Positions 623 to 52,596 of a stretch of 53,242 nucleotides of DNA are shown here, piece after piece (the first letter of the stretch is position 1; each line of letters starts with the position of its first letter). Source of the DNA: Escherichia phage CF2; the sequence record KY608966. One strand, 5' to 3'. A program made the translations under genes and the position numbers. The notes beneath the pieces were generated by a model. The model saw only the letters and a list, made by a program, of their open reading frames with translations. It did no database searches and was not told the origin of the DNA.

Positions 623-1052
623 AGCGTCAATTAGAGCGAAAGGACAGAACTTTGAGCGCAAAATGGCTAAGAAGTTCAATAGCTCGTTTGGATTAACTGT
701 TGAGCGCAATCTTCAACAGTCTATTAATGGCGGGGATGACTTGCTGGGTGTACCGTTTTTCAGTGTTGAACTGAAGAAGCACAATACTAAGTCTATCGGA
801 ACATGGTGGAGACAGTGTGCGGCATCGGCAAAGGCTCAGAACAAGATGCCAGTGCTTATATACGAACTACCAAGAAAACAGCCTACCGTGGTGATGAATA
901 AGGCTGATGTGATTGACTGTTTTCCAAGTGGCACGACTTTTAACGAGGCATCGAACCGCCTCTTTGTGGGTCTGGTAGAATTAACATGGGAACAATTTTG
1001 CCGGGTCTACAACTATTACGTTGCGCCCGGCACTCAATATCACGTCAATTAA
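612..1052 (+). CDS. PD-(D/E)XK nuclease, Holliday-junction-resolvase-like
   Basis: 'KGQNFER' and 'GGDD..FSVELKK' (D..ExK) motifs. The frame is open from 564. GTG 612 has GGAG 10 nt upstream, but the start is uncertain (ATG 663 is an alternative). Confidence 0.5.
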   Translation: MITRASIRAKGQNFERKMAKKFNSSFGLTVERNLQQSINGGDDLLGVPFFSVELKKHNTKSIGTWWRQCAASAKAQNKMPVLIYELPRKQPTVVMNKADVIDCFPSGTTFNEASNRLFVGLVELTWEQFCRVYNYYVAPGTQYHVN

Positions 1053-1234
1053 TCTTGTTTCAGCTCGTTACAAATAACACGCTGATTTTTGGCGGGGATA
1101 ATACCAAGATTCAGTAGGGTGTATGGACTATCAGCGACGCATTGTTCAACGGTAGTCCATTCAGGTTTGGATTCAACAATTTCGTAATTGCAGTCGTGAG
1201 TTGCTATACATGTTGCCAGGATTAAGCCAATCAC
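1049..1234 (-). CDS. Small putative lipoprotein or secreted protein
   Basis: 61 aa. GTG start with GGAG 7 nt upstream. N-terminus 'MIGLILATC' resembles a signal peptide with a lipobox. The start overlaps the upstream stop as GTGA. Confidence 0.45.
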   Translation of the reverse strand: MIGLILATCIATHDCNYEIVESKPEWTTVEQCVADSPYTLLNLGIIPAKNQRVICNELKQD

Positions 1235-1410
1235 AAGTAATCTCCATCAACCAGAAACTCAAACAATTGGTTGTAAACGTTGCAACCTTTAGCGAAAGAG
1301 CTTTCAGCAGGTTTACCGTCGCGGACAATCATCATATACTCACCGCCATGGATGTCCACCCAGTATTGCATGCCACCTTTGACCGGATTACGTTGCAGAA
1401 ATTTAAACAT
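1231..1410 (-). CDS. Hypothetical small protein (59 aa, below the ORF-track cutoff)
   Basis: Manual translation gives MFKFLQRNPVKGGMQYWVDIHGGEYMMIVRDGKPAESSFAKGCNVYNQLFEFLVDGDYL. AGGAG lies upstream, and TAATG and GTGA overlaps couple it to both neighbours. Confidence 0.45.
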   Translation of the reverse strand: MFKFLQRNPVKGGMQYWVDIHGGEYMMIVRDGKPAESSFAKGCNVYNQLFEFLVDGDYL

Positions 1411-1655
1411 TATTTACTCCTGACTCCAAGTTTATTCAATAGCCACACTGTCATGTCAACCCAGGTTAACGGTACAGTTTTCGGGGGTTGATAATCCCAG
1501 CAGCTTGCAGTTCTTTGTATTTCTGCTTGGCGCCGCTCCGCTTCGCGTAATACCGCATCGTCAGAAGTGCCGGCAGAAAAAAGATCGGTAACACCAGATA
1601 AATCGCGTTGATTAACACGTCGAGCAATGTCATATAAATCATCCTTAGAAAACAT
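1410..1655 (-). CDS. Hypothetical early protein
   Basis: 81-aa ORF in the leftward operon. Confidence 0.55.
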   Translation of the reverse strand: MFSKDDLYDIARRVNQRDLSGVTDLFSAGTSDDAVLREAERRQAEIQRTASCWDYQPPKTVPLTWVDMTVWLLNKLGVRSK

Positions 1656-1770: not shown

Positions 1771-1789
1771 AAGGCCTCCACTTGTGGGT

Positions 1790-2032: not shown

Positions 2033-2421
2033 CACTTGACCTCAAATTTTGACTCGTCATATTCCGGATCAGTCACGTCCCGGGTCGCACAATTTTTGAT
2101 TGCATCCCAGTAACGTTGGGCATCATCGCCATCGACATAAACTGTCCAGTGGCCGTAACCACCTTCAAATCTGTCCCAGGCTTGTTCCCAGACTTTGCCA
2201 TCTTCCAGCTTGTACCAAGTTGGACGACTGTCAAACTCGCGGATTGGATGGTACCCCATCAAAGGATTCATCAGGTCAATAATGTCTTCCCGACTAATCT
2301 CCTGGTTCTCCCACAACACCGTCATGAATTGCTCAAACTTGAAGGCGTTTGGCAGAATTTTGATGACTTCACCATCACAATATACGGTATAGGTGCCATC
2401 TTCGCATTTTGCACTGTACAT
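2032..2421 (-). CDS. Hypothetical early protein
   Basis: 129 aa from ATG 2421, preceded by 'aggagagagaaac'. The longer track start lies inside hairpin HP1. Confidence 0.65.
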   Translation of the reverse strand: MYSAKCEDGTYTVYCDGEVIKILPNAFKFEQFMTVLWENQEISREDIIDLMNPLMGYHPIREFDSRPTWYKLEDGKVWEQAWDRFEGGYGHWTVYVDGDDAQRYWDAIKNCATRDVTDPEYDESKFEVK

Positions 2422-4716: not shown

Positions 4717-4937
4717 GGTATTTTCTCCTTATCAGGACCAATCATCATCAGAGTAACACGGCAGGAGCTAACCTTTTGCTTATCACAATAATAAGTGAAG
4801 CCCCTCTAAAATTTTTTTATATTTTTCGGAAATTGTGTAGACACTCACTAAAAAGTGGTGTACTTTCTCTCCTCCACGCGCTATCATTAATGTGAATCAT
4901 CAAACGGCCTCACGGTCTCCTACTTGTGGGTAACATT

Positions 4938-7309: not shown

Positions 7310-7599
7310 TGGACCTGTTCGATATGGTCGAACATCCTGAAGTAAACAGCTTGGCGGAAGCTAAGCCTTTTAGCTGGGATGAATTCGTAGCAGGCAAACC
7401 TGCTGTAACCCACAACGGGCAGATTGCATATTACGGAGGCCATAGCGAACATCCGATGTGCACTCACCTGTACAACGCTATCACAACCATATCCGACGAA
7501 AACGTTATTAAATACGGAAAAGATGTAATGCCTTTTCTTGTAGATGAGCGCGGTTACTTCGAAGGTAAATGGTTCCCGTTTCTGGTAGAAATGGCCTAA
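7309..7599 (+). CDS. Hypothetical protein
   Basis: 96-aa ORF coupled to the upstream gene. Confidence 0.55.
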   Translation: MDLFDMVEHPEVNSLAEAKPFSWDEFVAGKPAVTHNGQIAYYGGHSEHPMCTHLYNAITTISDENVIKYGKDVMPFLVDERGYFEGKWFPFLVEMA

Positions 7600-8070: not shown

Positions 8071-9519
8071 ATGAACCTTGACTTTCACCTGCATGACAGA
8101 CAAGGTGCCGCTCTGCAGTCTCAGGCAACTGAGATTCTGTACGGTGGCGCCGCTGGTGGTGGTAAGTCTCACCTTATGCGTGTAATGTCAATTATCATGT
8201 GCTGCATGATACCTGACTTGCAGATTTACCTTTTCCGCCGAAACTATAACGACCTTACGGCTAACCACATGGTTGGCCCCACAAGTTATCCTGCCTTGCT
8301 GGATGGTATGTGCAAAGCTGGCAAGTGCAAGATTAACTACTCGAGCAACACGATTAAATTCTGGAACGGTGCGAACATCAAACTCTGTCACCTCCAGTAC
8401 GAAAAAGATATTTATACCTACCAGGGTGCGGAGATTCACGTTCTGCTGATGGATGAGCTTACTCACTTCACAGAAACGATGTACCGCTTCTTGCGTAACC
8501 GTGTCCGACTCGGTGCTCTTAAAGTCCCTGAGAACTTTTTCCGGCCACTACCACTCATCTTTTGTGGGTCAAACCCCGGTGGTGTTGGTCACAACTGGGT
8601 TAAGCGTACTTTCGTAACTGCTGCTCCTCCGATGAAAATCGTTAAGCAGGATAAACGCGAAGGCGGTATGGCTCGTCAGTACATTCCGGCTAAGATGACT
8701 GATAACCCTACGCTGATGGAAAACGACCCTGACTACGGTGACCGTCTTGAAGGTCTTGGCGACCCGGCGCTTGTTGCGGCGATGAAAGAGGGTGACTGGG
8801 ATATTGTTGCAGGTGGTGCACTAGACGACGTATGGTCAACTAAGTGCATTCTGCCGCGTATGCGTATTCCTAAAGGCTGGACTATCGAACGTTCTCTTGA
8901 CTGGGGATCTACTCACCCGTTCTCTGTTGGTATCTGGGCTATTGCAAATGGTGCCTCGCTTACAGACGACGAAGGCAATGAGTACTTTATTCCGCGTGGT
9001 TCAATTATACGTATAGCTGAATGGTATGGGTGCTCTGAAAAAGAAGCTAACAGGGGTATTAAGCTATCTGCTGCCGAAGTCGCTCAAGGTGTTCTTCGCC
9101 TACAGGAAAATCTGCAGGCTGGTGGCTGGATTCAAAGCAACGTTAATCCTGGTCCGGCAGATAGTCAGATTTATGCGTGCAAAGAAAAAGACGTTGAGAC
9201 TATCGCGAAAAAAATGGAAGACGAAGGCGTAACCTGGGTCAAGGCCGACAAGTCGCAAGGTTCGAGAATAAATGGCTTAGAGCTATTCCGTCAGCTTCTG
9301 AAAAATGTTAAGATGGACGAAACGGAAAAGCCGGGCATTTATTTCATGGAAAACTGTCCAGCAGCCATAAACACGTTGCCGGTTCTGCCGCGTGACAAGA
9401 ACAACACGGAAGATGTCGACACGAACTCTGAAGACCACGTATACGATGATTGTCGTTACATGGTGTTGCGTGGCATCAACCGTTATACTACCAAGCTCAA
9501 AATAAATATGGGACGGTAA
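8071..9519 (+). CDS. terL: Terminase large subunit
   Basis: Walker A 'GGAAGGGKSH' and Walker B 'VLLMDELTHF', with a C-terminal nuclease-type region. Confidence 0.9.
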   Translation: MNLDFHLHDRQGAALQSQATEILYGGAAGGGKSHLMRVMSIIMCCMIPDLQIYLFRRNYNDLTANHMVGPTSYPALLDGMCKAGKCKINYSSNTIKFWNGANIKLCHLQYEKDIYTYQGAEIHVLLMDELTHFTETMYRFLRNRVRLGALKVPENFFRPLPLIFCGSNPGGVGHNWVKRTFVTAAPPMKIVKQDKREGGMARQYIPAKMTDNPTLMENDPDYGDRLEGLGDPALVAAMKEGDWDIVAGGALDDVWSTKCILPRMRIPKGWTIERSLDWGSTHPFSVGIWAIANGASLTDDEGNEYFIPRGSIIRIAEWYGCSEKEANRGIKLSAAEVAQGVLRLQENLQAGGWIQSNVNPGPADSQIYACKEKDVETIAKKMEDEGVTWVKADKSQGSRINGLELFRQLLKNVKMDETEKPGIYFMENCPAAINTLPVLPRDKNNTEDVDTNSEDHVYDDCRYMVLRGINRYTTKLKINMGR

Positions 9520-9520
9520 A

Positions 9521-11083
9521 ATGTCGATAACCCCAAGCAGCACGCCGAACGTCGGATACCAGCGTCCTGAGCTGACTAAGAACGCTGGTAAGTACCGAAT
9601 GATTAAGGACTGCATCGAGGGTCAGGAAGCTGTTAAAGCACGCGGTGATTTCTACTTGCCCCGTCCTGACCCTACGAACTGCACAGAAGAAAACATGATG
9701 CGGTACAATTCGTACTTGCGTCGCGCTGTGTTCTACAACGTACTACAGCGAACTCTTTCGGGTATGACTGGTCTGGTATTCCAGCAGCAGCCTGAGATGT
9801 TGATGCCTGACGATATGGAAGTGCTGAAAGTAAATATCGACGGCGCAGGCATTGGCGCTATTCAGCAAATGCGTAAGTGCTTCAAGTCTGTTCTGGCTTT
9901 TGGTCGCGCAGGTCTGCTGACTGACTTCCCTAAAGCACGTATCGGTGAGTTTGGCGAGTCCATTGGCTTTACCCGTAAAGAGCTGATGGACGGAGATGTA
10001 CAGCCGACTGTAACGCTGTATATGCCATGGCAGATTATAAACTGGCGGGAAGAGTATCGCAATGGTAAAGTGATGCTCACTCAAGTTGTCATTTGCGAAC
10101 AGATACCGGGGGTTACTGATGGCTTTCAGCAAGACTACACACCCGTGTGGCGTCACCTTTACCTGGATGAAGAAGGCAATTGCAACCAGTCTTTGTGGGT
10201 CAATAAGGGCGACAAGAATGCGCAGAACGTCTCCGGTGGTGCGTTGTATGTCACACAAGAAAATGTTGTCTTACGCGACTCCAATGGCTTACCGTTGAAG
10301 TTTATTCCGTTCCAGTTTATTGGTTCTGAAACAAACAGCGCTGAGATTGACCCTCCGCCGATGTACGACTTAGCTGTGCTTAATATTGCACACTACCGTA
10401 ACTCTGCTGACTACGAAGAGTCATGCTTCGTAACAGGTCAACCCACAGTATGGGCGTCTGGTCTTACTGAGGCATGGGTTGAAGATGTTCTGAAGGGTGA
10501 ACTGCGACTCGGTTCGTTTGGTGGTATTCCGCTGCCGGCTAACGCCGCTGTAGGTATTATTCAGACCAACCCTAACACCCAGCCGTTTGAAGCGATGAAG
10601 CAAAAAGAAGCGCAGATGATTGCAATCGGTGCTCGACTGATTCGTGAGAATGGTAAGGTAGAACGACGCGAAGTTGAGATTAAGAATGAAGCGGCGTCTG
10701 AAGCTTCGCTTATCGTAACTGTTGCGCAGAACGTTGAAGCTGCTTATCGTAAGGCAATCGAATGGTGTGGCCTGTTCTACGGACACCATAAAGAAGAAAT
10801 TACGATTAACCTCAGCTACAACTTTATCTATAGCCAGTTGACTTATCAAGAACGTCAGCAGCTGGTTAACGAATGGATTGCCGGTGCTATCACGTTTAGT
10901 GAGATGCGTAGCAATCTTAAACAGGCTGGCATTGCTAAGCTCACCGACGAAGAAGCCAAGAAGCTAATTGATGAAGAGCTGGCTGAACGCGATGCGCGTG
11001 AGGTAGCAAAAGAAGCAGAAAAGAACGCTCAAGCAGCTAAGAACAGCGATGGGCAGGAAAATAATCCAGAAAAAACTGAATAA
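9521..11083 (+). CDS. Portal protein
   Basis: 520 aa, directly downstream of terL, with an acidic and basic C-terminal tail. Confidence 0.8.
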   Translation: MSITPSSTPNVGYQRPELTKNAGKYRMIKDCIEGQEAVKARGDFYLPRPDPTNCTEENMMRYNSYLRRAVFYNVLQRTLSGMTGLVFQQQPEMLMPDDMEVLKVNIDGAGIGAIQQMRKCFKSVLAFGRAGLLTDFPKARIGEFGESIGFTRKELMDGDVQPTVTLYMPWQIINWREEYRNGKVMLTQVVICEQIPGVTDGFQQDYTPVWRHLYLDEEGNCNQSLWVNKGDKNAQNVSGGALYVTQENVVLRDSNGLPLKFIPFQFIGSETNSAEIDPPPMYDLAVLNIAHYRNSADYEESCFVTGQPTVWASGLTEAWVEDVLKGELRLGSFGGIPLPANAAVGIIQTNPNTQPFEAMKQKEAQMIAIGARLIRENGKVERREVEIKNEAASEASLIVTVAQNVEAAYRKAIEWCGLFYGHHKEEITINLSYNFIYSQLTYQERQQLVNEWIAGAITFSEMRSNLKQAGIAKLTDEEAKKLIDEELAERDAREVAKEAEKNAQAAKNSDGQENNPEKTE

Positions 11084-11977: not shown

Positions 11978-12955
11978 ATGTCACTGTATATTTTTAACGA
12001 ACAAGTACGTTCTACCGCCACCGAACTGGTCGACCAGGACGTACAGAAGTTCAACGAAGCTTCTGCAGGTACCCTTATCCTGGGTAACCAGTACGTAATT
12101 GGTGATTACGTTGAGCAGGCAATGTGGCAGCTGGTTGACGGCATCGCTACTCGCCGTAATGCTTACGCAGGCACCAACAAAGTTGATGCACAGACTCTGG
12201 GTCAGATTCTGGACCGCTCTGTTAAAATCGACGGCCGTGTTGGTCCTCTGAACATTACCGGTACCATGATGCGTCGCATCGGTGCAGGTGATACTGAACC
12301 AGCAGCTGTTGTTGCTGCACAGGCTTCTGCTGCAATGTTCCAGGATTACCTGAACACCACTGCTGCATGTCTGGTAGCTGCTATCGGTGCAAACGCTGAT
12401 GTTGTTCTGGACGTAACTTCAGGCTCCGGTGCTGCTGCAAACATCACCATGCAGAACCTGAACAAAGTCAACGCGAAGATGGGTGACCGTTCTCAGCAGA
12501 TTCGTGCGTACATCATGCACTCTACTGCGTTCCACTCCCTCATCGACCAGGCTATCAACAATACAGAACACCTGTTCCAGATTGGTGACCTGAACGTGTA
12601 CAAAGACTTCCTGGGTCGTCGTTATGTCGTTTCCGACATCCCAGCTCTGGTTGATGGCGCCGGTGCTTCCGCTAAGTACCGCACTCTGGGTCTGACCCCG
12701 TCTGCTGCAATCGTTCAGGTCGGCGGCCTGTACGATATGGTTACCTCCGAGCAAACCGGTGGTGAAAACATCCTGCGTCAGATGCAGGGTGAATACGACT
12801 TCAACGTGTCGCTGAAAGGCTACAGCTGGGTCGGTCACAAAGCTGGTCAGTCTCCGACTGATGAAGACCTGGCTGCTCAGGCGTCCTGGTCTAAAGTTGC
12901 GACTTCCAACAAAGACACCGCTGGTGTTATGCTGCTGGCTAAGTCTGCAATCTAA
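11978..12955 (+). CDS. Major capsid protein
   Basis: 325 aa, with codon usage typical of high expression, located after the scaffold gene and followed by a strong terminator. Confidence 0.8.
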   Translation: MSLYIFNEQVRSTATELVDQDVQKFNEASAGTLILGNQYVIGDYVEQAMWQLVDGIATRRNAYAGTNKVDAQTLGQILDRSVKIDGRVGPLNITGTMMRRIGAGDTEPAAVVAAQASAAMFQDYLNTTAACLVAAIGANADVVLDVTSGSGAAANITMQNLNKVNAKMGDRSQQIRAYIMHSTAFHSLIDQAINNTEHLFQIGDLNVYKDFLGRRYVVSDIPALVDGAGASAKYRTLGLTPSAAIVQVGGLYDMVTSEQTGGENILRQMQGEYDFNVSLKGYSWVGHKAGQSPTDEDLAAQASWSKVATSNKDTAGVMLLAKSAI

Positions 12956-12977
12956 CCCACAAACGGGACTAACAAAA

Positions 12978-13060: not shown

Positions 13061-13561
13061 ATGGCATACACACTTGTTGTGGAAGACGGTTCAATTGTTC
13101 CGGGTGCTAACTCGTATGTTAGCACTGCAGAAGTTGATGAGTTTATCACTAACGAAGGTATTCTCATTCAACCAGGAACTGACCCGTACTACCAAGCTGC
13201 CAAAGCAGCTATCCGACTTGATAACCAGTTTAACTGGCTAGGTCGTAAGGTCAGCAAAACACAGAGCATGGCTTGGCCCCGTACTGGCCTCGGTGCATGT
13301 AATGTTGACATCGCTGAGTCTGTAATTCCGCGAGAAGTTAAGCTGGCACAGCTTTATATGATGGCCAGTGTATTGAGCTACGACGGTGAAGAAGGTGTGC
13401 GTAGCGACCAGGCCTTGCGCCGTAAGAAAGTTGGTAACCTGGAGATTGAATACTTCGACTCCAAATCAGGCGTTACCGGTGCAACTGACCTTTGGACGTC
13501 AGACGTCAAGGCCATGCTCAAGCACCTTGTGGGTGCGTCCCTGAGAACGCGGAGAGTATAA
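13061..13561 (+). CDS. Head-tail connector (gp6-like adaptor)
   Basis: N-terminal 'GANSYVSTAEVDEFI' signature typical of the gp6-like connector family. Confidence 0.6.
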   Translation: MAYTLVVEDGSIVPGANSYVSTAEVDEFITNEGILIQPGTDPYYQAAKAAIRLDNQFNWLGRKVSKTQSMAWPRTGLGACNVDIAESVIPREVKLAQLYMMASVLSYDGEEGVRSDQALRRKKVGNLEIEYFDSKSGVTGATDLWTSDVKAMLKHLVGASLRTRRV

Positions 13562-14877: not shown

Positions 14878-15500
14878 TGGCAACTGAAGTAGACCCGGAA
14901 CTGCAAGCGCAGCTGGATAAGCTAACCACTGCTGTCCAGCTCATTCATGACTTCGGTATGTCAGGCGACCCAAACATCCCTAACCCGGAAGGCGGTGTCA
15001 TACGCACACTCGAAGGCATTAACGCTGCAATCAACGAAGCTATACCAAACTTTGAAAACGCTAACGAAGCTGCTATCCAGGCGCGTGCTGCTCGTGACGC
15101 GGCTATTGCAGCCAAAGAAGCTGCAGAAACGGCAGCTGAACAGGCCACAGTAGCTTCGACGTCAGCAATCTATGAGTACGGCAACGTTGCAAGTGCAGCT
15201 ACAGTGACTATACCAGCTGCGTCTAAAACAATTGTCAGCCTTACTCTTAACCAGCCAAACACCGTAATTAATATCGGTGGTGTATCTGACCCGTCTACTG
15301 TTGCGCGTCAGATTACTATTGCTATTAAGCAAGGCACTGGTTCTAACAAGGTGACTTCTTGGGATCCAAGAATAAAATGGGCCAACAACAGGAAGCCCGT
15401 TCTGTCATTCCTTGTGGGTTACACAGATGTTGTTACGTTGCTGACCTTTGACTCAGGCGCAACTTGGATGGGTTTCTTTAACGGTGGATGGATTAAATAA
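14877..15500 (+). CDS. Hypothetical virion protein with Ala-rich coiled coil
   Basis: 207 aa. 'ANEAAIQARAARDAAIAAKEAAETAAEQA' resembles a fibre N-terminus. Confidence 0.5.
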   Translation: MATEVDPELQAQLDKLTTAVQLIHDFGMSGDPNIPNPEGGVIRTLEGINAAINEAIPNFENANEAAIQARAARDAAIAAKEAAETAAEQATVASTSAIYEYGNVASAATVTIPAASKTIVSLTLNQPNTVINIGGVSDPSTVARQITIAIKQGTGSNKVTSWDPRIKWANNRKPVLSFLVGYTDVVTLLTFDSGATWMGFFNGGWIK

Positions 15501-18524: not shown

Positions 18525-19163
18525 ATGGCAAATCGTACTACAGCCAACCGTCCTGTTAAAGACGCAGACCTGCGTCAAGAGTCGGTTACTCAGTTCCCGT
18601 TATCCAAGCCAACCAAGCTTGACGAGAACGGAAAATTCATTCCAACCCCAGTTACCGGTGTAACTGCTACACCTAAGGCTAAGTCAATTGCTGTTGGTGA
18701 GTTTACAACTCTGTCAGCAGCAGTAGCCCCGGTAGACGCGGACGACGTTACTGTATTGTGGGAAAGCAATGCGCCTGACAAAGCCACTGTTGATGGTTCA
18801 GGTCGTGTTCAGGGTATTAAAGTTGGTTCAGCAACTATTACTGCTAAATCCAAGCTTGACCCTTCCAAAACCGATACTGTAGCAATTACGGTAACTGCTC
18901 CGCCTGTAGCCGTCACTGGTGTTACGTTAGCGCCTAAGTCGCCAAGTGTTGTAGTAGGCTCTACTGTACAGCTGACTGCAACTGTACTGCCTGCTGGCGC
19001 TACTAACAAAGCTGTTACCTACGAATCAAACGACCAGGCTAAAGCTACCGTTAGTGCAACTGGTCTGGTTACCGGTAAAGCAGCTGGTGTCGTCACCATC
19101 ACTGTCAAAACAGCTGATGGCAGCTTCACTGACACCGCGTCAGTAACTGTTACTGCTGAGTAA
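18525..19163 (+). CDS. Ig-like (Big_2) domain protein, two domains
   Basis: 'VTGVTATPKAKSIAVGEFTTLSAAVAP..TVLWESN..ATVDGSGRV' and a second copy of the same pattern. Confidence 0.75.
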   Translation: MANRTTANRPVKDADLRQESVTQFPLSKPTKLDENGKFIPTPVTGVTATPKAKSIAVGEFTTLSAAVAPVDADDVTVLWESNAPDKATVDGSGRVQGIKVGSATITAKSKLDPSKTDTVAITVTAPPVAVTGVTLAPKSPSVVVGSTVQLTATVLPAGATNKAVTYESNDQAKATVSATGLVTGKAAGVVTITVKTADGSFTDTASVTVTAE

Positions 19164-28098: not shown

Positions 28099-28108
28099 GT
28101 AACCCACA

Positions 28109-37600: not shown

Positions 37601-38485
37601 TTATACGGCCATTTGGAGTTTGATGTTCGGCATTGGTTTGTACTTCTCAACCATTGGCGCAACATCGGCAGGAGTGAAGTCAAATACTGACACGTCGTAA
37701 ATCGCGTTAATGTCAGGACGGCCTTCAAAGTTAGTGTCCAGGGTAGAATCAGAATTGCTTACGATACGTTGCAGGAAAATCTTTGCCGCGTCGATATGAT
37801 TCTGATAGATGTGATAATCACCCAGCGTAACAGTCATGTCGCCAACACCAGTGCCCAGCTCAGCAGCAATGGTAATCTGCAACATCTGATGAAGCAGGAT
37901 GTCATGTGGCAGACCAAGGATAACGTCCGCACTACGCATATGGAACATCAGCTCTAATTCATTACGGTTGTTAATGAACAGCTGAAAACCATGGTAACAA
38001 GGCGGAAGGGCCATGGCGTCCATCTCTTGTGGGTTCCATGCCGTAATGTATGCCCGGCGGTCAGTAGGCTTAACCTTCAACGTTTCAATAACGTCTTTAA
38101 GCTGGTTAGTAAGAACACCATTCTTATAGAAAGGCTTAACCCATTGTACGCCGTATACAGGACCTAAGTCACGGTTGTCTGGTGTACCCCAACGTTTGTT
38201 TGCGTCTTGCAGGTTACCTTCCCACCAGTTGCAGCCAAAGCCTTTGAGCGTGTCGACGTTTGAAATGCCGTTTATAAAGCAATAGAGCTCAGCAGCAACA
38301 GCTTTGATGTTAACAGGTTTAAACACAGGCACCATCAGTTTGTTGTCGTTGAAAGCCAGCTTAAATGCTGTACCAAAACAACGGCGGGTACCAACACCTG
38401 TACGGTCTACAACATCCTCACCTTTACGCAGGATAAAAGAAATGATGTCGCTGTAAAGAGAATCGATAGTGCTGTATGTTTTCAT
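37601..38485 (-). CDS. Thymidylate-synthase-family enzyme with Asp at the ThyA Asn177 position (predicted dCMP-specific methylase or hydroxymethylase)
   Basis: 'DLGPVYGVQW', 'DRRAYITAWN', catalytic 'ALPPCY' and 'GDYHIYQNH' are ThyA-like. 'HMRSADVILGLPHD' aligns without gaps to ThyA 'YQRSCDVFLGLPFN' and T4 gp42 'NMRSNDVVFGFRND'. Confidence 0.75.
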   Translation of the reverse strand: MKTYSTIDSLYSDIISFILRKGEDVVDRTGVGTRRCFGTAFKLAFNDNKLMVPVFKPVNIKAVAAELYCFINGISNVDTLKGFGCNWWEGNLQDANKRWGTPDNRDLGPVYGVQWVKPFYKNGVLTNQLKDVIETLKVKPTDRRAYITAWNPQEMDAMALPPCYHGFQLFINNRNELELMFHMRSADVILGLPHDILLHQMLQITIAAELGTGVGDMTVTLGDYHIYQNHIDAAKIFLQRIVSNSDSTLDTNFEGRPDINAIYDVSVFDFTPADVAPMVEKYKPMPNIKLQMAV

Positions 38486-40936: not shown

Positions 40937-42593
40937 AGCCGTTTCCCCAGTCGTAGTTCATGATTTGTGGGTAGGGTCGTTTAATCCATACCTTGATGCG
41001 CTTAGGAATAGCCAGCTCACCCTTACGGCGGATAAACTCATCGCATGTTTCAGGCGGTTCTGTTCCTGCAGCATTACGCCACCAGGCGTCTGCCATTTGC
41101 TTAGCATTACCATGGGCCTCTATATTTACCCATGTTGTATACACTTCCAGGTTTGAGTAGTACACAACCTTTATACTGTCAGGTCGTCCCTGCTTCTGGA
41201 ATAAAGAATAGTTTACCAGCGTAACATCTTTATCCACAACACGAAGCTGACCGTTAGTCATTACCTCTTCTTCTGATGAAGTGAAGGCAATAGCAGGTCC
41301 GTTAACTGTAAACTCAAACTCATGCCCGCACATCGGATATACACCATTCTCGTCTGGCGTACTTCCTTTAGCCGGATGCTTACACGTACGAGCAGCATAG
41401 CCACTTACCTGGTGACAGATAGGACACTCTTTACCGCCAGGTGTTTTCTCTGACCGTTTCTTTTTCTTCTTACCAAGACGTGGCGGAACAGCCGGGTCGT
41501 CAATAGGTCCAAGGTCAATGGTGTTAGACGTGAAGTCCATAACAAGACAGTCATGCTTGCCAGGCGCTGTACGTAATCCTCGACCGAGTATCTGCACCCA
41601 CAAAGCAACAGACGTGGACGGGCGCAAGATGCCGAGCATATCAATTTCAGGATAGTCAAATCCTGTCGTCAATACGCTTACGTTTACACAGACCCGTGCT
41701 CGTCCGCTTGTAAACTCTTCCAGTGCGGCTTCACGTTCTTTCTTTGTAAGACCGCCATGCACAACTACAGTCTGCCAACCTCGCAGATTAAACTCGTCTG
41801 CTATGTTGTGGGCGTGCTCAACACTTGTGGCAAATACAAGAACGTGGTTCCTGTCTTTACCGTAGTGCATCATCTCACGAATAGCCGCGACTGTTATACT
41901 ATGTTGGTTGGCTACCTTCTCAAGCTCTGACGGTATGTAGTCACCCATCCTTTCACCAACATTACTGGTGTCAATCTTGGTTAACACTTTCTTGTTGACC
42001 AGGCGTGACAGGAAGCCTTCATTTACCAACCTGGTGAATGCGTCAGGTGTTGTAAGGTCATAGCATATGTCGGTAAATATACCACAGTCCAGCAAGTGAC
42101 CACCTGCAAGGCGATATGGAGTTGCTGTGAGTCCTGTTACCTTTACCTTAGGATTAAGCTCTTTGAAGTGAGCAATAACCTTACGGTATGTTGTTTCAGA
42201 CTTCTCAGGAACAAGATGGGCTTCGTCAATGAATATAAGATTAAACTTACCTGCTTCTTCCAGGTTCTTAATAATTGACTGTACCGATGCTACAACGATA
42301 CGGCCTGAAAAGTCTTTATGTCCTGCACCTGAAGAGTAGATTGATACTGGTGCTTGTGGCCAGTGACGAACAATTGCTTTGGCGTCTTGTTCAACCAGCT
42401 CCTTGACGTGAGTCAGTATAAGAATACGCTGACGGGGATAGCTGGTAAGAATATCCTTCATCAGCATACCAAGCACAGGTGATTTGCCTGAACCTGTTGG
42501 CATGACAATAAGTGGGTTACCACTATAAGAATTGAAGTACGACCACCAAGCTGTGACCGCTTCTTGTTGATACCAGCGAGCTTCAAAAGCCAT
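40923..42593 (-). CDS. SF2 DEAD/DEAH-box DNA helicase with C-terminal zinc ribbon
   Basis: Motif I 'MPTGSGKS', motif II 'FIDEAHLV', motif III 'GLTATPYR' and 'CPICHQ..CKHP'. Confidence 0.85.
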   Translation of the reverse strand: MAFEARWYQQEAVTAWWSYFNSYSGNPLIVMPTGSGKSPVLGMLMKDILTSYPRQRILILTHVKELVEQDAKAIVRHWPQAPVSIYSSGAGHKDFSGRIVVASVQSIIKNLEEAGKFNLIFIDEAHLVPEKSETTYRKVIAHFKELNPKVKVTGLTATPYRLAGGHLLDCGIFTDICYDLTTPDAFTRLVNEGFLSRLVNKKVLTKIDTSNVGERMGDYIPSELEKVANQHSITVAAIREMMHYGKDRNHVLVFATSVEHAHNIADEFNLRGWQTVVVHGGLTKKEREAALEEFTSGRARVCVNVSVLTTGFDYPEIDMLGILRPSTSVALWVQILGRGLRTAPGKHDCLVMDFTSNTIDLGPIDDPAVPPRLGKKKKKRSEKTPGGKECPICHQVSGYAARTCKHPAKGSTPDENGVYPMCGHEFEFTVNGPAIAFTSSEEEVMTNGQLRVVDKDVTLVNYSLFQKQGRPDSIKVVYYSNLEVYTTWVNIEAHGNAKQMADAWWRNAAGTEPPETCDEFIRRKGELAIPKRIKVWIKRPYPQIMNYDWGNGYGAR

Positions 42594-43529: not shown

Positions 43530-43999
43530 TTGTTAAACTCCTCAACACTGAATTCATCGTACACAATATTATGTGCCCACAAATGAGCGACGGCATTTGC
43601 CATGCTATCCTTCCATTTGGATTGTGAAGCTGTATGTGCCAATGCAACTACACGTACCAGGTTAAGGTTGGCTATCAGCATGTCAGCACAATGTTCGCAC
43701 GGCGGGTAGGTTATGTAGATGGTAACAGGGCCTAAAGAAGGAGTGTCTAACTCACTCCTTATGTTAGCTAAGGTGTTTATCTCGCTATGAATAGTTAGAG
43801 CGTTCTTGAGGCTATTAGGCACTATTCTTATAGAGTCTAACTGCGTAGGCAGACCGTTATATCCAGTGGAAATAATACGCTTGTTCTGGTCCACAAGAAC
43901 GCTACCGACTTGACGTTTCGGGTCCTTCGACCAGCTTGCAACTTCACAAGCTATGCGCATAAACCGCCTGTCCCACTTGTCCATCTTCTTCTTTTGCAT
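43514..43999 (-). CDS. dCMP deaminase (zinc cytidine/deoxycytidylate deaminase fold)
   Basis: 'HSEINTLAN' (HxE) and 'PCEHCADML' (PCxxC). Confidence 0.85.
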   Translation of the reverse strand: MQKKKMDKWDRRFMRIACEVASWSKDPKRQVGSVLVDQNKRIISTGYNGLPTQLDSIRIVPNSLKNALTIHSEINTLANIRSELDTPSLGPVTIYITYPPCEHCADMLIANLNLVRVVALAHTASQSKWKDSMANAVAHLWAHNIVYDEFSVEEFNNVQSV

Positions 44000-45598: not shown

Positions 45599-45828
45599 TA
45601 GTGATAGTCCTCATAAAGTGATTCTTCATCGCAGTACATACGATAAAGAGCTTCTTCGGCTTCTTCCAGGGTGTCAAACTCCTCGCCACAGACGGAGTAT
45701 TTTGTGGGTTCATCGAATGACTCGACGATGTGCCAGTCATGATGAATACCGTATGTCCACAAGTCGCAGTCGTCTTTTGCAACAAGCTTACGTGTGGAAC
45801 GAAATTGTGCTAGAGTATTGATGCTCAT
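45598..45828 (-). CDS. Hypothetical protein
   Basis: 76 aa from ATG 45828, with AGGAG upstream. The longer track start would include the promoter. Confidence 0.5.
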   Translation of the reverse strand: MSINTLAQFRSTRKLVAKDDCDLWTYGIHHDWHIVESFDEPTKYSVCGEEFDTLEEAEEALYRMYCDEESLYEDYH

Positions 45829-45888: not shown

Positions 45889-46335
45889 CTATTTTACACT
45901 AACAGCTTGACACGATAGCCGCGACAAACCGAGGTTGGCTATGACGCCATCGAGCAATACTCCTGCATGTTCTTCGTTGTATGCTTCTACCCACAAAGGG
46001 ATGGTGACGCCCTTCAGATGGTCGCTATACACGTTGAACCTATATACCTGTTTGTGTGCTTTGTCAACACGTACAACAGTAAGGTTACCATCTTCGTAAG
46101 GAGGAAGCTCAACGCCTTTCTTACTCCAGAAGTTACGGAACTCAGCACTATTAACAATGCCGTGTACAACACGTTCTGTAAGCTCTGTTTTGAGGTCAGC
46201 ACGTGCCTTTGTACTGATAAAGAAACGACAAGAGAAGAAAGCATTGACGTTTAACACATCAACCGCGTACACAACGTTATGCTCTTCAGCAGTTGGTGCT
46301 TTATAAACAATATATTTAGTTTTGAACAGGTCCAT
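45889..46335 (-). CDS. Hypothetical protein
   Basis: 148 aa from ATG 46335, with GGAGAG 5 nt upstream. Confidence 0.55.
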   Translation of the reverse strand: MDLFKTKYIVYKAPTAEEHNVVYAVDVLNVNAFFSCRFFISTKARADLKTELTERVVHGIVNSAEFRNFWSKKGVELPPYEDGNLTVVRVDKAHKQVYRFNVYSDHLKGVTIPLWVEAYNEEHAGVLLDGVIANLGLSRLSCQAVSVK

Positions 46336-47403: not shown

Positions 47404-47694
47404 TTATTTTAAGGCAGAAGTGCAAATAGCATCACACAAACAATAATGAGCACGGTCGTAGTCTTCAAACAAGAACACTTCGCCATTGGCGACAACTTCA
47501 TTACTGTTGACCTGCAGGCTAATACCTGAATGCAGAAGCACATCCATAGCCTGGTCCTTATTCTTGTACGGGTCCCAAATAAGCTGGAAGCCTGACCCAC
47601 AAAGGAGACATCCCTTGAGCTCCGGAAGAGTTGACTCCTTCACAGTCACATTACAAATCTTAGCCAGTTTAGCACGAGAATCGAGAGTACTCAT
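47404..47694 (-). CDS. Hypothetical protein
   Basis: 96-aa ORF with an ATGA overlap to the upstream gene. Confidence 0.55.
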   Translation of the reverse strand: MSTLDSRAKLAKICNVTVKESTLPELKGCLLCGSGFQLIWDPYKNKDQAMDVLLHSGISLQVNSNEVVANGEVFLFEDYDRAHYCLCDAICTSALK

Positions 47695-48049: not shown

Positions 48050-48388
48050 TCAAGAATCAGATGAGCTATCTTCACGTTTGACCTCCGGAAGTAATGAGTT
48101 ATCAACCTTGATCAGTACGTTACGGCTGTTAACCACTTCCAGGCTGGTGCCATCCTTTTTGTGGGTTACACGAATAAATGCAACACCCTCAGCCTGTGCC
48201 TGCTCGATAGCTTTATCCAGCACAACATTATCCTGTACCATATGGCGTACGCGAGGAAGGATATTGCAAAGAGGTTCCATCTCATCCATTCCTGCAGTAC
48301 GCATGACTGACTTGAGAATGCCAAGATGATGCTTATAACGGTCTTCAAGATTATACTTCTTGCTGTTATGCTTTAGTTCTGATGCCAT
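48050..48388 (-). CDS. Hypothetical protein
   Basis: 112 aa from ATG 48388, with GGAG 6 nt upstream. Confidence 0.55.
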   Translation of the reverse strand: MASELKHNSKKYNLEDRYKHHLGILKSVMRTAGMDEMEPLCNILPRVRHMVQDNVVLDKAIEQAQAEGVAFIRVTHKKDGTSLEVVNSRNVLIKVDNSLLPEVKREDSSSDS

Positions 48389-48432: not shown

Positions 48433-48882
48433 TTACTCGGCTTCTTCCGTAGCTGCCGGGGTGAATGTTACAGTCGGAATACCAGGCGAGGTCTTCACAA
48501 CAGGGTCGACGATAGCCAGTTGTTCTGGTGTCAGGTTACGGTATGCAGTAACTGACATTTCATATTTGGTTTTAAACAGCTTGGCAACAACAGTCTTCGG
48601 TAACTTCTTCATTACGTCAGGCACAAGCTTCTGGTCTAGTGAGCGGTTAACCTTCTGCTCAACCTTGAGTTTACCAGGTACGCCATGCAGGCTAAACTCA
48701 ACCGTTTGTGTACCTTCTTTACCACGATTGATAATCATGTCACGTTCAAGACGTGCTTTAATGGTCCGGCGCAACGTCTCCTGGTCAGCTTTCGCTTGTG
48801 CCATCCAGCGGTTCAGATTCGCCAGCTTGTCGTACAGCTGTTCCGTGTCCATCGATTCCAGTTCTTGTGGGTTCAATGCCAT
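48433..48882 (-). CDS. Hypothetical protein (coiled-coil N-terminus)
   Basis: 149 aa from ATG 48882, with GAGGA upstream. Confidence 0.55.
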   Translation of the reverse strand: MALNPQELESMDTEQLYDKLANLNRWMAQAKADQETLRRTIKARLERDMIINRGKEGTQTVEFSLHGVPGKLKVEQKVNRSLDQKLVPDVMKKLPKTVVAKLFKTKYEMSVTAYRNLTPEQLAIVDPVVKTSPGIPTVTFTPAATEEAE

Positions 48883-49694: not shown

Positions 49695-49724
49695 TTTACT
49701 CTGGTTTAATAACGTGTATATAAT
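49695..49724 (+). promoter_or_regulatory. sigma70-type promoter TTTACT-18-TATAAT
   Basis: -35 at 49695-49700 and -10 at 49719-49724. Confidence 0.6.
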
Positions 49725-49754
49725 GAGAGCCTCACAAACAAGAGGAGAGACTCA

Positions 49755-50087
49755 ATGATAAAGCCAAAACTGTTGCGGCATATTCGCAACGGTATTAAGC
49801 TACTCGCCGAAGGCAATGAATATGCCTGCAAGCAACGCGGTATTACAAAAGTCGGCCTGTTCAATAAAGAGTTACCGACTCGCTACTTTACCAAATCACC
49901 ATTAACACTCGTACCTGCAGCGGAGTATTATAAAGACCCCGAAGCAGCTCGGGCTAAAATCAAGGAAGGTCTTGACCGACTTGTAGAGGAAGGCTATTTG
50001 ACAGTACGTCAACACACTGAATCATCTTATTACTACAAGCCAACTTCTAAGGTAACCAGCAATGACAATGACGAGTCAGCCGAGTGA
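49755..50087 (+). CDS. Hypothetical protein (possible winged-helix DNA binder)
   Basis: 110 aa with an AGAGGAGAGA RBS, directly upstream of the primase-helicase gene. Confidence 0.55.
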   Translation: MIKPKLLRHIRNGIKLLAEGNEYACKQRGITKVGLFNKELPTRYFTKSPLTLVPAAEYYKDPEAARAKIKEGLDRLVEEGYLTVRQHTESSYYYKPTSKVTSNDNDESAE

Positions 50088-52596
50088 TATTCTCGGTCTG
50101 AAATACTTTAAGCCAGAAGGGATTCCACAAGTCTTCAAAGATATGAAGCGCTGGGCTATTTTTGAGCTGACGTACGAAGACGAGACTCTCGAAGTTCAAT
50201 CCAAACCTAAGAAACCTGCAAGAGCGCCATCAGGCCGTTCCTTCAGCACAACAGTGCCTGAAGAGTGGATGACTTTCGACGACGCCCTGACACGTTGTAT
50301 CCGCAATCGTGAAATGAAGATTAAAGCTGTACAGGGTAACATCACCTTTGTGCCGGCTTTGATTGTTCCTCGCCAGTGGTACTTTGTTGACCTGGACAAC
50401 CATGAAGATAATCCAGACATTGAAGCTACCCACAAAGCGATAATTGAGGGTACCCGTGGTGCTTATGCAGAGACGTCAATCTCTGGCAAAGGTCAACACA
50501 TCGCAATCCCTTTACCCTGGACCGCAGCAACATCTAAAGAGAAAGACGACCAGCTGGACATCAAAATCCAGAAGGCTGAGATGTTCCTGGTAATGACAGG
50601 CAATGTGTTGAGTGAGTTCAATGCTAATCCTGTTTCAGCCCGTGAATGGCATGCAGCAATTGAGAAGTTCTTTCTTGAATCAAGCGCACCTGATATTGAT
50701 GTTGAGTTTGAGCAAGACGAAGACCGTGGCGAAGAGTATGACAAAGAGCTGTACGAACAGTTAGCCGACAATACTCGCTGGGCCTTAGAACACTATCTGA
50801 ATGAACATGCACCAGACGGTGTTGGTGTGAGTAATGACGGTTCCGAACGTTTAAGCCGCATACTCAAAGACTTGCTTCGTGTAACCCGTAACTATGAAGT
50901 TACACAACGCATCTTCATGGCCAGCAAAGCTGCAGCATACGAAGGTCGCAGACCAAGCCGACACAACTTGTCTGTTGACAAGTACCACCAGTGGTTCAGC
51001 CGTGTTGGTAAGACTGTGCTGAAAGAGATGCAACGTGACGGCTTATTCGTTAAGACCAAGTTTGCTCTTGACATCAACAAAGAGTTAGCCAAGAATTCAG
51101 GTGTCTCCCTGGCTGAGAACGTTGAGTTCAAGGTCAACGACGACATTCTGCCTTCTGATGTATTCGTCAGGACGGCTCCGTCCGGGTTTAAACGGCTTAT
51201 TGCTGAGATACAGGATAACATATCTCCGGCTAACAGGGTTAACGACTATGCAATCGGCACAGCTCTTAACATACTGAGCAACTGCGCCGGTCGCAAGTAT
51301 GTTTGTCCAGTAGGCGGTCATGCTAACTTCCTGGTAACCAACATCATTCTTGTGGGTGGTTCATCAATCGGTAAATCCCTGTATACCGAAATGTTCCCAC
51401 AAATCCAGGCAAGTGTGCCAGACACATCGCCTATCAGCCTTAACCGTATCCCAAGGGAACAGACTTTTGCAACCAGGACGTTTGCTGAACTGATGTCCAA
51501 CCCGTCATACCATTCAGTCCAGTTGTTCTACCCTGAATTTGGTCTGGCTTTAGGTTCAGGCTTACGCATGAATCCTAACAACCCGGACAACTTTCAGAAA
51601 GCTCTGATGGACGCTTCAACCAAGCGTAAGGTTGGCGGTATACTGACAGGTATCAAACGTGCTAATGCTGACAATGATGTCAAGACAGTAAGCGAACCGT
51701 GTTACTCTATCCTGGGTGACTCCACTCAAGAGCTTATCCTTGACAACACCCGGAAGCAAGACTTCTCAAGTGGCTTTTTGCCCCGCTTCCTGTTCATCCC
51801 GAACTACGAACGAGCGGAGTTTGCCAAACCTGAGAAGGTAGGACGTCGCCAGCAGATTCGCCGTACGTCCTTTTCAAAGGAGCTGATTGAGAAGCTGGAA
51901 GCAATCGCTTATGTGAATGCTATCCCGCCTAACGGTAAACTAAGGCACGACCCGATTCCTATTTACGATGAGTCGGACGATGATGACTTCCTGTACGAGT
52001 ACCAGTGCAATATTAATGACATGCGCCAGTATTACAGGGACAACGAAGTAGCATCTGCCTTTGTGGGCCGAATGGGTGAGTATGTATTCAATATAGCAGC
52101 ACTGATTGGCTTACTCGACAACTGGGATGCTCCTGTAATGACCAGGGACAACATCGAATGGGCTTACAAATACGTTCTTCGTTGTATAACCGCCTGGGTC
52201 AATAACACAAGCAGAATAGTCGCACCTCCGACTACCAACGCTGAAGTAGTTGACGGCTTCCTCAAAGTCTACAGGGACATTTTGGCCCTTTACGCCAAAA
52301 GCGGATGGAACGGTATTGTTAAGCATTATCCTGAGGGTGTTGTGAGAAGTATTCGAGAAGAACACCTCCAGATGAATGGTTTAAGCATATATGCTATTCG
52401 TCAATCTTTAAGCTGGTTTAAATCAAATTATGGTTTTAATATCACGGCTAATAATAAAGTCATTGACGGAATGCTACAGGACATGATTGACCAGGACTAT
52501 TTAGCGGTTCAAATATATAAGCCCACAAGAGGCCGAACTGCTAACATTTACTGCCTGACAGAGCGAGGATATGACACTGCTAAGAAACTAAAATAA
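50062..52596 (+). CDS. Bifunctional AEP primase-polymerase / D5-like SF3 helicase
   Basis: AEP motifs 'YFVDLDNHED' and 'ETSISGKGQHI'. Walker A 'VGGSSIGKS' lies in the C-terminal half. Confidence 0.8.
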   Translation: MTMTSQPSDILGLKYFKPEGIPQVFKDMKRWAIFELTYEDETLEVQSKPKKPARAPSGRSFSTTVPEEWMTFDDALTRCIRNREMKIKAVQGNITFVPALIVPRQWYFVDLDNHEDNPDIEATHKAIIEGTRGAYAETSISGKGQHIAIPLPWTAATSKEKDDQLDIKIQKAEMFLVMTGNVLSEFNANPVSAREWHAAIEKFFLESSAPDIDVEFEQDEDRGEEYDKELYEQLADNTRWALEHYLNEHAPDGVGVSNDGSERLSRILKDLLRVTRNYEVTQRIFMASKAAAYEGRRPSRHNLSVDKYHQWFSRVGKTVLKEMQRDGLFVKTKFALDINKELAKNSGVSLAENVEFKVNDDILPSDVFVRTAPSGFKRLIAEIQDNISPANRVNDYAIGTALNILSNCAGRKYVCPVGGHANFLVTNIILVGGSSIGKSLYTEMFPQIQASVPDTSPISLNRIPREQTFATRTFAELMSNPSYHSVQLFYPEFGLALGSGLRMNPNNPDNFQKALMDASTKRKVGGILTGIKRANADNDVKTVSEPCYSILGDSTQELILDNTRKQDFSSGFLPRFLFIPNYERAEFAKPEKVGRRQQIRRTSFSKELIEKLEAIAYVNAIPPNGKLRHDPIPIYDESDDDDFLYEYQCNINDMRQYYRDNEVASAFVGRMGEYVFNIAALIGLLDNWDAPVMTRDNIEWAYKYVLRCITAWVNNTSRIVAPPTTNAEVVDGFLKVYRDILALYAKSGWNGIVKHYPEGVVRSIREEHLQMNGLSIYAIRQSLSWFKSNYGFNITANNKVIDGMLQDMIDQDYLAVQIYKPTRGRTANIYCLTERGYDTAKKLK

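Follow-up and report, generated by a model that had tools for sequence, protein, structure and literature searches.

Arrays of a T-GTGG word in Escherichia phage CF2 and related phages: probable priming sites of a phage-encoded primase

Escherichia phage CF2 (sequence record KY608966; all 53,242 bases, called the window here) is a BP63-like (Rosemountvirus) myovirus of Salmonella/E. coli, in which the octamer TTGTGGGT and its core TTGTGGG recur on both strands. Here, we report that these TTGTGGG(T) sites are probably lineage-specific extended priming sites of the phage's own primase, set out in Okazaki-scale arrays. The reading draws on enrichment, conservation, per-strand regularity, lineage variants, primase family and co-occurrence, all observed here; GTG/GTGG recognition and the geometry of initiation come from the literature and are carried over to the window primase by analogy. 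We infer both a requirement of this primase for the extended word and the in vivo use of the sites to start Okazaki fragments. Priming sites for an archaeo-eukaryotic primase (AEP)-helicase were among the hypotheses of an initial annotation of this DNA, and are the best supported of them, probably the right one, given an NrS-1-type enzyme, the T-GTGG geometry and strand-specific, Okazaki-like arrays.

Abundance of the word

An exact search of the whole window found 31 copies of TTGTGGGT (21 on the + strand and 10 on the - strand), the top-ranked 8-mer in a k-mer ranking. The 7-mer TTGTGGG occurs 43 times (25 on +, 18 on -; ~3.8 expected), followed by T in 31 cases, C in 6, A in 5, and G in 1, and on these counts it is the functional core unit. 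A pyrimidine precedes 28 of the 31 octamers, and the base after the octamer is not conserved (T 14, A 8, C 5, G 4). Dinucleotide shuffles gave an expectation of 1.95 ± 1.4 octamers (maximum, 6), Markov models of order 0-4 gave 1.4-4.5, and synonymous codon shuffling within genes gave 6.9 ± 1.7 (maximum, 12), the last including four noncoding sites that are fixed under the shuffle. Coding cannot explain the excess, as the initial annotation had held. Markov orders 5-6 were rejected as nulls; there, the word's own sub-words dominate a 53-kb sequence and the comparison is uninformative.

Each of the six frames contains octamers (16 are sense, 11 are antisense, and 4 fall between genes or at their boundaries), which agrees with the earlier description of sites on both strands, in every phase and in spacers, and their orientation is unrelated to transcription. 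The earlier count of at least 31 octamers matches the exact search, and 21 against 10 was correctly judged to be no strong strand bias. All octamer coordinates then given were right except 37010 (true position, 37000); the list of near matches was right except 27834 (true position, 27824), and it missed two 7-mers, at 18756 (+) and 18103 (-).

Conservation in relatives and contrast with the host

In 200 kb of E. coli K-12 (four 50-kb pieces), the word occurs twice and Chi, GCTGGTGG, 54 times; Chi is not enriched in the window (5 copies). Related phages of different genera carry TTGTGGG at 33 to 39 copies per 50 kb or less (BP63, 39; ZCSE2, 35; fHy-Eco03, 34; Erwinia phage SOI901, 39; Erwinia phage RF1, 33), RF1 having 70% polymerase identity and a different virion module. 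Among orthologous sites with alignable flanks (~75-77% identity), to which the conservation test was limited, all seven bases are kept at 21/31 in ZCSE2 (5.2 expected), 12/18 in fHy-Eco03 (2.8 expected), and 10/20 in SOI901 (2.5 expected). Many of the relatives' sites stand at new positions, so density is maintained through turnover. Judged by these comparisons, the word is a property of the phage and not of the host, and is under selection. The checks proposed in the initial annotation, k-mer counts against Markov and codon-shuffled nulls and their repetition in related phages and the host, thus left the excess standing in the window and its relatives, with next to nothing in E. coli.

Words of other phage lineages

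The same unbiased k-mer ranking was applied to distant phages with the common replication module. It returned TGTGGYCA in Vibrio phage VpKK5 (37 observed, ~3 expected), TGTGGTCA(A) in E. coli phage 9g (30, 2.1 expected), CCCCTGTGGCA (CTGTGGCA) in Synechococcus phage Ssp-JY38 (30, 2.3 expected), and TGTGGGCA in Paracoccus phage R3 (26, 0.65 expected), Pseudomonas phage Kopi (18, 0.24 expected), and E. coli phage FtMidnight (16, 0.66 expected), with weaker signals for TGTGGCA in Pseudomonas phage POR1 (29, 6.8 expected) and TGTGGWCA in a Stenotrophomonas phage (21, ~2.5 expected). The top word of every lineage with this replisome (TTGTGGGT, CTTGTGGG, TGTGGYCA, TGTGGTCA, CTGTGGCA, TGTGGWCA, TGTGGCA, and TGTGGGCA) contains a T-GTGG core. 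Three lineages infecting E. coli have three words (TTGTGGGT in the window, TGTGGTCA in 9g, TGTGGGCA in FtMidnight), which excludes a host factor.

The same ranking gave nothing comparable in the lambda control, and in the T7 control it returned only the known promoter, with no primase-type word standing out. The bare 5-mer TGTGG is enriched in none of the genomes tested; outside array sites it is depleted, with an order-2 observed/expected ratio of ≤0.85 in 10 of 13 array genomes (0.37 in VpKK5) and ≥0.92 in 9/9 controls. Literature searches on TTGTGGGT/ACCCACAA, TGTGGTCA/TGACCACA, and TGTGGGCA/TGCCCACA returned nothing beyond PCR primers and eukaryotic motifs without a relation to it, a search for over-represented primase recognition words and Okazaki fragments found no description of such arrays, and the motif was not apparent in the titles and abstracts of the Rosemountvirus papers listed.

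Some of these genomes have a second over-represented word: GGGCCAGC/GGCTGGCCC in Paracoccus phage R3 (15 observed, 0.56 expected), GGGGATAGG in the Stenotrophomonas phage (8, 0.25 expected), and TAGTGTGGG in Kopi and FtMidnight (4-5, 0.01 expected).

Spacing and strand

Gaps between the 31 octamers have a coefficient of variation (CV) of 0.58, against ~0.97 for random placement (P ~0.0005), and the largest is 4106 bp; the sites had rightly been called fairly evenly spread. Taken strand by strand, the core sites have mean gaps of 2.1 kb on the + strand (n=25; maximum, 4.1 kb; CV, 0.50) and 3.0 kb on the - strand (n=18; maximum, 5.6 kb; CV, 0.57). Within the window, permuting strand labels destroys the per-strand regularity (P<0.001), and sliding one strand's sites against the other's leaves the combined regularity unchanged. 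Among eight genomes, the relabelling test gave P≤0.03 in 8/8, and the shift test was nonsignificant in five and gave P ~0.05-0.06 in three. Per-strand gap CVs are lower still in VpKK5 (0.24 and 0.32), Paracoccus phage R3 (0.29 and 0.31), and FtMidnight (0.37 and 0.34). These patterns point to a word that is read on one strand, each strand having its own array and the two arrays being mostly independent. Regularity per strand, in arrays that ignore each other, argues against an orientation-blind duplex-binding protein and favours a machine travelling on, or working from, single-stranded DNA.

The two arrays of a genome differ in density (window, 25/18; FtMidnight, 25/14; Paracoccus R3, 16/10; Kopi, 10/17; VpKK5, 15/22), with the denser one on the sense strand of most genes. 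A tally of the site list against gene blocks found the + excess of the window in plus-strand and leftward blocks alike. Unequal density could reflect the predominant fork direction.

The primase and its published relatives

The proposed reader of the sites is an 844-aa protein of phrog_3022 ("DNA primase" in PHROGs), with an N-terminal AEP prim-pol, a helix-bundle domain (HBD; ~residues 255-330), and a C-terminal DUF3987/SF3-like helicase. Alone, it gave only a weak DUF3987 match against Pfam and NCBIfam, so the family was assigned by profile-profile comparison: the window-clade primase profile matched the NrS-1 polymerase group in hhalign (probability, 99.9%; E, 3e-31; residues 20-816) over the AEP DxD and sGxGxH motifs, the HBD block, and the helicase P-loop. 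The VpKK5 orthologue matches Pfam PF22763 (NrS-1 HBD) above cutoff, followed by DUF3987, and the window HBD block aligns with that PF22763 match. By these profiles, the window primase is an NrS-1-type AEP/helix-bundle/helicase enzyme. A PDB sequence search with it found no match, a homologue search with its N-terminus found one trivial match, and a single-sequence AlphaFold model was useless (pLDDT, 31).

In the RF1 record ("partial genome"), the primase gene is split into two halves, one at each end and in opposite orientations (85-1398 and 43965-44933), which suggests misassembly or an inverted segment in the deposited sequence.

The prim-pol of phage NrS-1 uses template 5'-GTGG-3' or 5'-GTGA-3', in which GTG is essential and is read via the HBD, initiates at the first base 5' of the recognised motif, and also recognises 5'-TTTGGTTA-3' (PMC8718748). 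For priming, ORF904 of plasmid pRN1 requires a GTG directly on the 3' side of the start site, its structurally characterised template being 5'-C-T-G-T-G-C-T with HBD contacts over ~7 nt (PMC13469122), and this GTG requirement is HBD mediated (PMC13469122, PMC2965215).

In the phages studied here, GTGG is invariant in the top word of all array-bearing lineages, and at sequence level the base 5' of it is T in every lineage and would template an initiating A. The ~9 nt of 5' flank, the predicted primer-templating side, are pyrimidine rich and G poor in the window clade and RF1. By analogy, the invariant T-GTGG is a match to the published recognition and initiation geometry of HBD primases, and the variable 3' extension (G-T, Y-C-A, G-C-A, or C-A) would sit where the pRN1 HBD also contacts its template. 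TTGTGGG goes with the window/ZCSE2/SOI901 primase cluster (44-88% mutual identity, ≤21% to others), and TGTGG-N-CA goes with the VpKK5/Stenotrophomonas/Paracoccus/9g cluster (25-42% mutual identity).

Co-occurrence with the replisome

Arrays were found in 14/14 genomes that have a full-length member of this primase family along with a separate polymerase and clamp, against 0/7 others, a pattern that is expected if the AEP enzyme is a dedicated lagging-strand primase for another polymerase. The NrS-1 prim-pol is its own replicase, with no separate family-A polymerase or clamp. Its genome has a single extended word, AAGTGTAACC, in 11 copies on both strands at 17062-17370 (~300 bp), directly downstream of the primase-polymerase gene; the reverse complement, GGTTACACTT, overlaps the published TTTGGTTA recognition sequence. 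The cluster looks like the phage origin, and it may explain why the 8-mer was found biochemically.

In temperate phage phi105 and in Salmonella phage 9NA, only the AEP N-terminus is related, and no array was found. Phage 9NA was considered as a test of the primase in another context and set aside as uninformative, on the grounds of that limited relationship and because its enriched words come from tandem coding repeats. These are GCT rich (Ala/Tyr/Asp) in gp10 (3185-3430) and comprise seven 30-bp repeats in a Gp2.5-like single-stranded DNA-binding protein (SSB) gene (40362-40542), and they account for its top k-mers.

Proposed mechanism and points against it

In the proposed mechanism, the HBD would bind the GTGG(G,T) part of the word on a single-stranded template, the T immediately 5' of GTGG would template the first primer nucleotide, A, and a purine-rich primer (5'-AAR...) would be copied from the pyrimidine-rich 5' flank and extended by the phage family-A polymerase with its clamp. 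Read on one strand only, the word would give either strand, when it is the lagging-strand template, a start in each Okazaki-sized interval. Selection would hold the sites, fill long gaps, and purge stray copies of the core, and the common T-GTGG core would be extended differently in each lineage. With host DNA almost free of sites, priming would be confined largely to phage DNA.

We put forward a bolder form only tentatively and do not favour it. This is a private priming code, in which each AEP-HBD primase would prime efficiently only at its own 7-9-nt word, present once per 2-3 kb per strand; Okazaki starts would be hard-wired, lagging-strand synthesis would be restricted to phage DNA to the exclusion of the host and of co-infecting relatives, and the code relating HBD residues to 3' extension could be read solely from the ~400 sequenced phage genomes that encode this primase.

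Several observations weigh against priming sites. Primase and Cas4 exonuclease are almost perfectly codistributed in the public phage collection (410 and 411 records), which made a phage-encoded Chi-like system a serious rival, and the separation of the two rests on two genomes, one of them a prophage. Phage 9NA encodes a polymerase of its own and a related AEP N-terminus, yet has no array, and in the Stenotrophomonas phage and POR1 the signals are weaker and per-strand regularity is not significant or only partly so. TTGTGGG is common to three very divergent primases (window against SOI901, 44%; RF1, ~28-30%), an objection offset by the primases of 25-42% identity that likewise share TGTGG-N-CA, and the HBD block is conserved no better than the rest of the protein. 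HBD primases are known to need only GTG(G), 3-4 nt, and a need for 7-9 nt is without precedent. SF3-like helicases track the leading-strand template, and a C-terminal helicase of this type leaves the access of the fused primase to the lagging-strand template unexplained. The authors of the NrS-1 study also stress the flexibility of recognition (PMC8718748).

Alternative explanations

The nearest alternative keeps the replisome and changes only which step is site dependent: the word could be another strand-specific signal, for loading, pausing or restart of the primase-helicase hexamer or for the timing of clamp loading or polymerase recycling. It would explain the same single-strand reading and the association with primase, polymerase and clamp, and the NrS-1 authors speculate that GTG sites serve replication restart (PMC8718748). 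We think it unlikely, the invariant T 5' of GTGG and the bias of the primer-side flank being explained most simply by initiation proper. We consider it quite unlikely that the word is a private Chi, read on single-stranded DNA by the phage RadD-like SF2 helicase and Cas4/RecB-like exonuclease; end resection would then be stopped or modulated, sparing phage DNA for Sak4-mediated recombination, and site-poor host DNA would be degraded. The statistics are Chi-like (a short, asymmetric word, strongly over-represented, found in every frame and missing from the "other" genome), an end-protection signal could likewise take the form of strand-specific arrays with no long gaps, the helicase, Cas4-like nuclease, DUF669 SSB and Sak4 are in every array-bearing genome, and the Cas4 and primase distributions coincide. 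The two genomes that separate them are the lytic Pseudoalteromonas phage H40/1 (helicase, Cas4, DUF669 SSB and a distant prim-pol; no separate polymerase or clamp) and the Moraxella prophage Mcat18 (helicase, Cas4, SSB and Sak4; no primase). Their Cas4 proteins are the closest homologues outside the clade (~44%), yet k-mer ranking found no enriched word in either. A Chi gives no reason for a GTGG core equal to the HBD-primase site, an invariant 5' T, or a pyrimidine-rich 5' flank, and we know of no RadD-like SF2 helicase with a separate Cas4-like nuclease that reads a Chi-like sequence.

Targets of a nicking or base-modifying enzyme, like the nicks of T5, phiKMV and phage tf or a sequence-specific hypermodification, would also be asymmetric, strand specific and spread over the genome, and both the pyrimidine-metabolism genes of the window (ThyA, MazG-like, dCMP deaminase, DHFR-like, and Tmk-like) and the 7-deazaguanine cassettes of relatives fit such an enzyme. 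Arrays nevertheless occur with and without the cassette and alongside differing nucleotide-metabolism genes, no nickase or methyltransferase is common to all array genomes, and enrichment, even spacing and purging elsewhere would have no obvious reason, which makes this very unlikely. A 7-deazaguanine/DpdA target was rejected outright, since arrays are also found in phages that lack the cassette. We give least credence to binding of the duplex by an architectural or regulatory phage protein, such as the product of 40141-40668, or by a host protein, and to a Chi for host RecBCD, two of which the initial annotation had suggested, the first with 40141-40608 as its example. Dispersed copies are many, part of the 40141-40668 product is conserved across lineages, and the reverse complement of the DnaA box, TGTGGATAA, has some resemblance to the word. 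A duplex binder nonetheless fits poorly with regularity that belongs to each strand and not to the combined set, with orientation unrelated to transcription, and with a 40141-40668 protein that matches no DNA-binding family, and either form conflicts with a word that host DNA lacks and that is not the same in all phages of a given host. The word also has G where the DnaA box needs an invariant T/A pair, and identity with that box was rejected. The 2-against-54 count in E. coli and the five Chi copies of the window speak against host Chi.

Genome organisation and site coordinates

About 40 deposited genomes match the window at 95-99% identity; the DNA polymerases of the window and phage brunost are 100% identical. 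Bases 1-305 recur identically at 52938-53242, leaving a unique length of 52,937 bases; this is the overlap of a circularly assembled genome or part of the terminal repeat. No word site lies inside it, so site counts are not inflated. The relative fHy-Eco03 is annotated with 3.7-kb direct terminal repeats. Coordinates are listed in Table 1.

Table 1. Word sites and main genes of the window. Octamer rows are from the exact search with gene context, 7-mer-only rows are from the TTGTGGG core site list, and gene layout is from the BP63 annotation and open reading frame calls made here.
Feature	Position	Strand or direction	Context
TTGTGGGT	964..971	+	inside RusA-like gene, sense; kept in ZCSE2/SOI901 alignments
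TTGTGGGT	1782..1789	+	intergenic
TTGTGGG only	2310..2316	-	next base A
TTGTGGGT	4924..4931	+	gene boundary
TTGTGGGT	7408..7415	-	
TTGTGGG only	8278..8284	-	
TTGTGGGT	8562..8569	+	terminase large subunit gene
TTGTGGGT	10193..10200	+	portal gene
TTGTGGGT	12955..12962	-	end of major head gene / spacer
TTGTGGGT	13527..13534	+	
TTGTGGGT	15412..15419	+	
TTGTGGG only	17410..17416	-	
TTGTGGG only	18103..18109	-	absent from earlier list
TTGTGGGT	18193..18200	+	
TTGTGGG only	18756..18762	+	absent from earlier list
TTGTGGG only	19538..19544	-	
TTGTGGGT	20832..20839	+	
TTGTGGGT	23119..23126	+	
TTGTGGGT	24532..24539	+	tape measure gene
TTGTGGGT	25165..25172	-	
TTGTGGG only	27824..27830	+	
TTGTGGGT	28102..28109	-	spacer / gene boundary
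TTGTGGGT	29537..29544	+	
TTGTGGGT	32215..32222	-	
TTGTGGGT	33606..33613	+	
TTGTGGGT	34870..34877	+	antisense in DNA polymerase gene
TTGTGGGT	35967..35974	-	sense in DNA polymerase gene
TTGTGGGT	37000..37007	+	clamp gene
TTGTGGGT	38027..38034	+	ThyA gene, antisense
TTGTGGGT	40965..40972	+	
TTGTGGGT	41596..41603	-	
TTGTGGG only	41806..41812	+	
TTGTGGG only	43576..43582	-	
TTGTGGGT	45702..45709	+	
TTGTGGGT	45989..45996	-	
TTGTGGGT	47595..47602	-	
TTGTGGGT	48159..48166	+	
TTGTGGGT	48865..48872	+	
TTGTGGGT	50428..50435	-	antisense in primase gene
TTGTGGGT	51350..51357	+	sense in primase gene
TTGTGGG only	51396..51402	-	
TTGTGGG only	52061..52067	+	
TTGTGGG only	52522..52528	-	
Small early genes	up to ~4.4 kb	leftward	
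Structural and lysis block	4.7-34 kb	rightward	
Replication block	34-49.7 kb	leftward	family-A polymerase, clamp, ThyA, MazG-like protein, RadD-like SF2 helicase, Cas4-like exonuclease, dCMP deaminase, DUF669 SSB, Sak4
Family-A DNA polymerase	34608-36575	-	phrog_947 among evidence for polymerase/clamp pair
Sliding-clamp-like processivity factor	36575-37570	-	adjoins polymerase; pair spans 34608..37570
RadD-like SF2 helicase	40923-42593		
Cas4/RecB-like exonuclease	42652-43647		
844-aa primase gene	50062-52596	+	proposed reader of sites

Between the primase and RusA genes, 52597-53242 plus 1-560 are noncoding and very AT rich, with (ATT)n runs at ~52809-52838, a 12-nt direct repeat (AATATATGGGCT) at 52691 and 52739, and a terminator-like inverted repeat at 52589-52661. 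The stretch coincides with the start of the annotated fHy-Eco03 terminal repeat and is a candidate replication origin and/or genome terminus. The pyrimidine-metabolism genes lie at 37601-39463, 43514-43999, and 5416-6593 (ThyA, MazG-like pyrophosphohydrolase, dCMP deaminase, DHFR-like, and thymidylate-kinase-like). The slot beside the clamp gene holds ThyA and MazG in the window and a 7-deazaguanine (DpdA/QueCDE/FolE) cassette in syntenic Queuovirinae-type relatives (VpKK5, 9g, Ssp-JY38, and the Stenotrophomonas phage).

GATC is strongly depleted in the window (29 sites, ~208 expected) and occurs 2-24 times per 50 kb in BP63, ZCSE2, fHy-Eco03, SOI901, and RF1; it is not depleted in 9g (157) or VpKK5 (349). 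This suggests a clade that avoids Dam/MutH or a GATC-specific restriction system. Other words are mildly over-represented in the window (AGTGTCTA/TAGACACT, 6 against 0.55 expected; TCTCTCCTC, 4 against 0.08), as is GAGTATAT in BP63 (10 against 1.3); they may be promoter or regulatory elements. Record PP583539.1 ("Listeria phage 220426122051") is ~97% identical to this Salmonella/E. coli phage group, and its host label is probably wrong or the sample contaminated.

Significance and comparison with known systems

Primase sites are usually seen as 3-nt signals that occur everywhere by chance, and Okazaki starts are treated as stochastic. That primases have recognition sites, and that those of HBD type are specific for GTG(G), is established; what appears to be new is long, lineage-specific, selected sites in per-strand, Okazaki-scale arrays over many phage genera, of which our searches found no description. 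Should the reading hold, long start signals, particular to each lineage and ruler-spaced on each strand, would be encoded by a large and widespread phage group (among them Rosemountvirus, Loughboroughvirus, Queuovirinae, Septimatrevirus and relatives, whose hosts extend from E. coli to cyanobacteria). Such phages would be a natural system where sequence fixes how long Okazaki fragments are and where they start, and where both could be re-engineered; primase specificity would be predictable by sequence alone, and the way helix-bundle domains read DNA could be studied. The sites would also offer a possible mechanism by which a phage replicates its own DNA and not the host's. The reading would further constrain the recoding or engineering of therapeutic phages of these genera, in which synonymous changes could destroy sites.

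Among dispersed words of other function, DNA uptake sequences (USS/DUS) are hyper-abundant in the genome of a naturally competent host species; the window word, by contrast, shows no enrichment in E. coli DNA, and the arrays occur in phages of varied hosts, each phage lineage with a word of its own. The stoperators of cluster A mycobacteriophages (L5 gp71 sites) are likewise two to three dozen short, asymmetric copies across a phage genome, but they are duplex repressor sites of temperate phages, oriented with transcription and mostly intergenic, whereas the octamers are divided between sense and antisense and only 4/31 are noncoding. Chi (RecBCD/AddAB) is also a short, asymmetric, over-represented word in all frames that marks "own" DNA and is read on one strand by a translocating machine. 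Unlike the window word, Chi is a property of the host genome and is read by a host enzyme; the window word is absent from the host, varies among phages that infect one host, and has no counterpart in phages with the helicase-nuclease module only (H40/1 and Mcat18).

DnaG/TOPRIM-type primases use trinucleotides, and the T7 gp4 primase uses 5'-GTC-3' with a cryptic 3' base (strong sites, GGGTC/TGGTC). Like the sites proposed here, those of T7 gp4 are template signals for lagging-strand primer starts and include a cryptic part that is recognised and not copied. The zinc-finger/TOPRIM fold of gp4 is, however, unrelated to AEP, its 3-5-nt signal occurs by chance every few hundred bases, and the window has an AEP-type primase and no conserved base after the 8-mer. 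Closer in layout is pRN1 ORF904, whose Y-T-GTG-N-N template, T at the first-nucleotide position, and ~7-nt HBD footprint match the size and layout of the phage words, but which is an archaeal plasmid enzyme that requires the trinucleotide alone, with no genome-wide site arrays described. Closest are the sites of NrS-1, which are read by a homologous enzyme (AEP, HBD and helicase), have the same GTGG core, recognised via the HBD, and direct initiation at the adjacent 5' base. The extended word of NrS-1 is clustered by its primase gene, in a phage without a separate family-A polymerase or clamp; the window and its relatives differ in having a 7-9-nt lineage-specific word, kept by purifying selection in regular, per-strand, genome-wide arrays.

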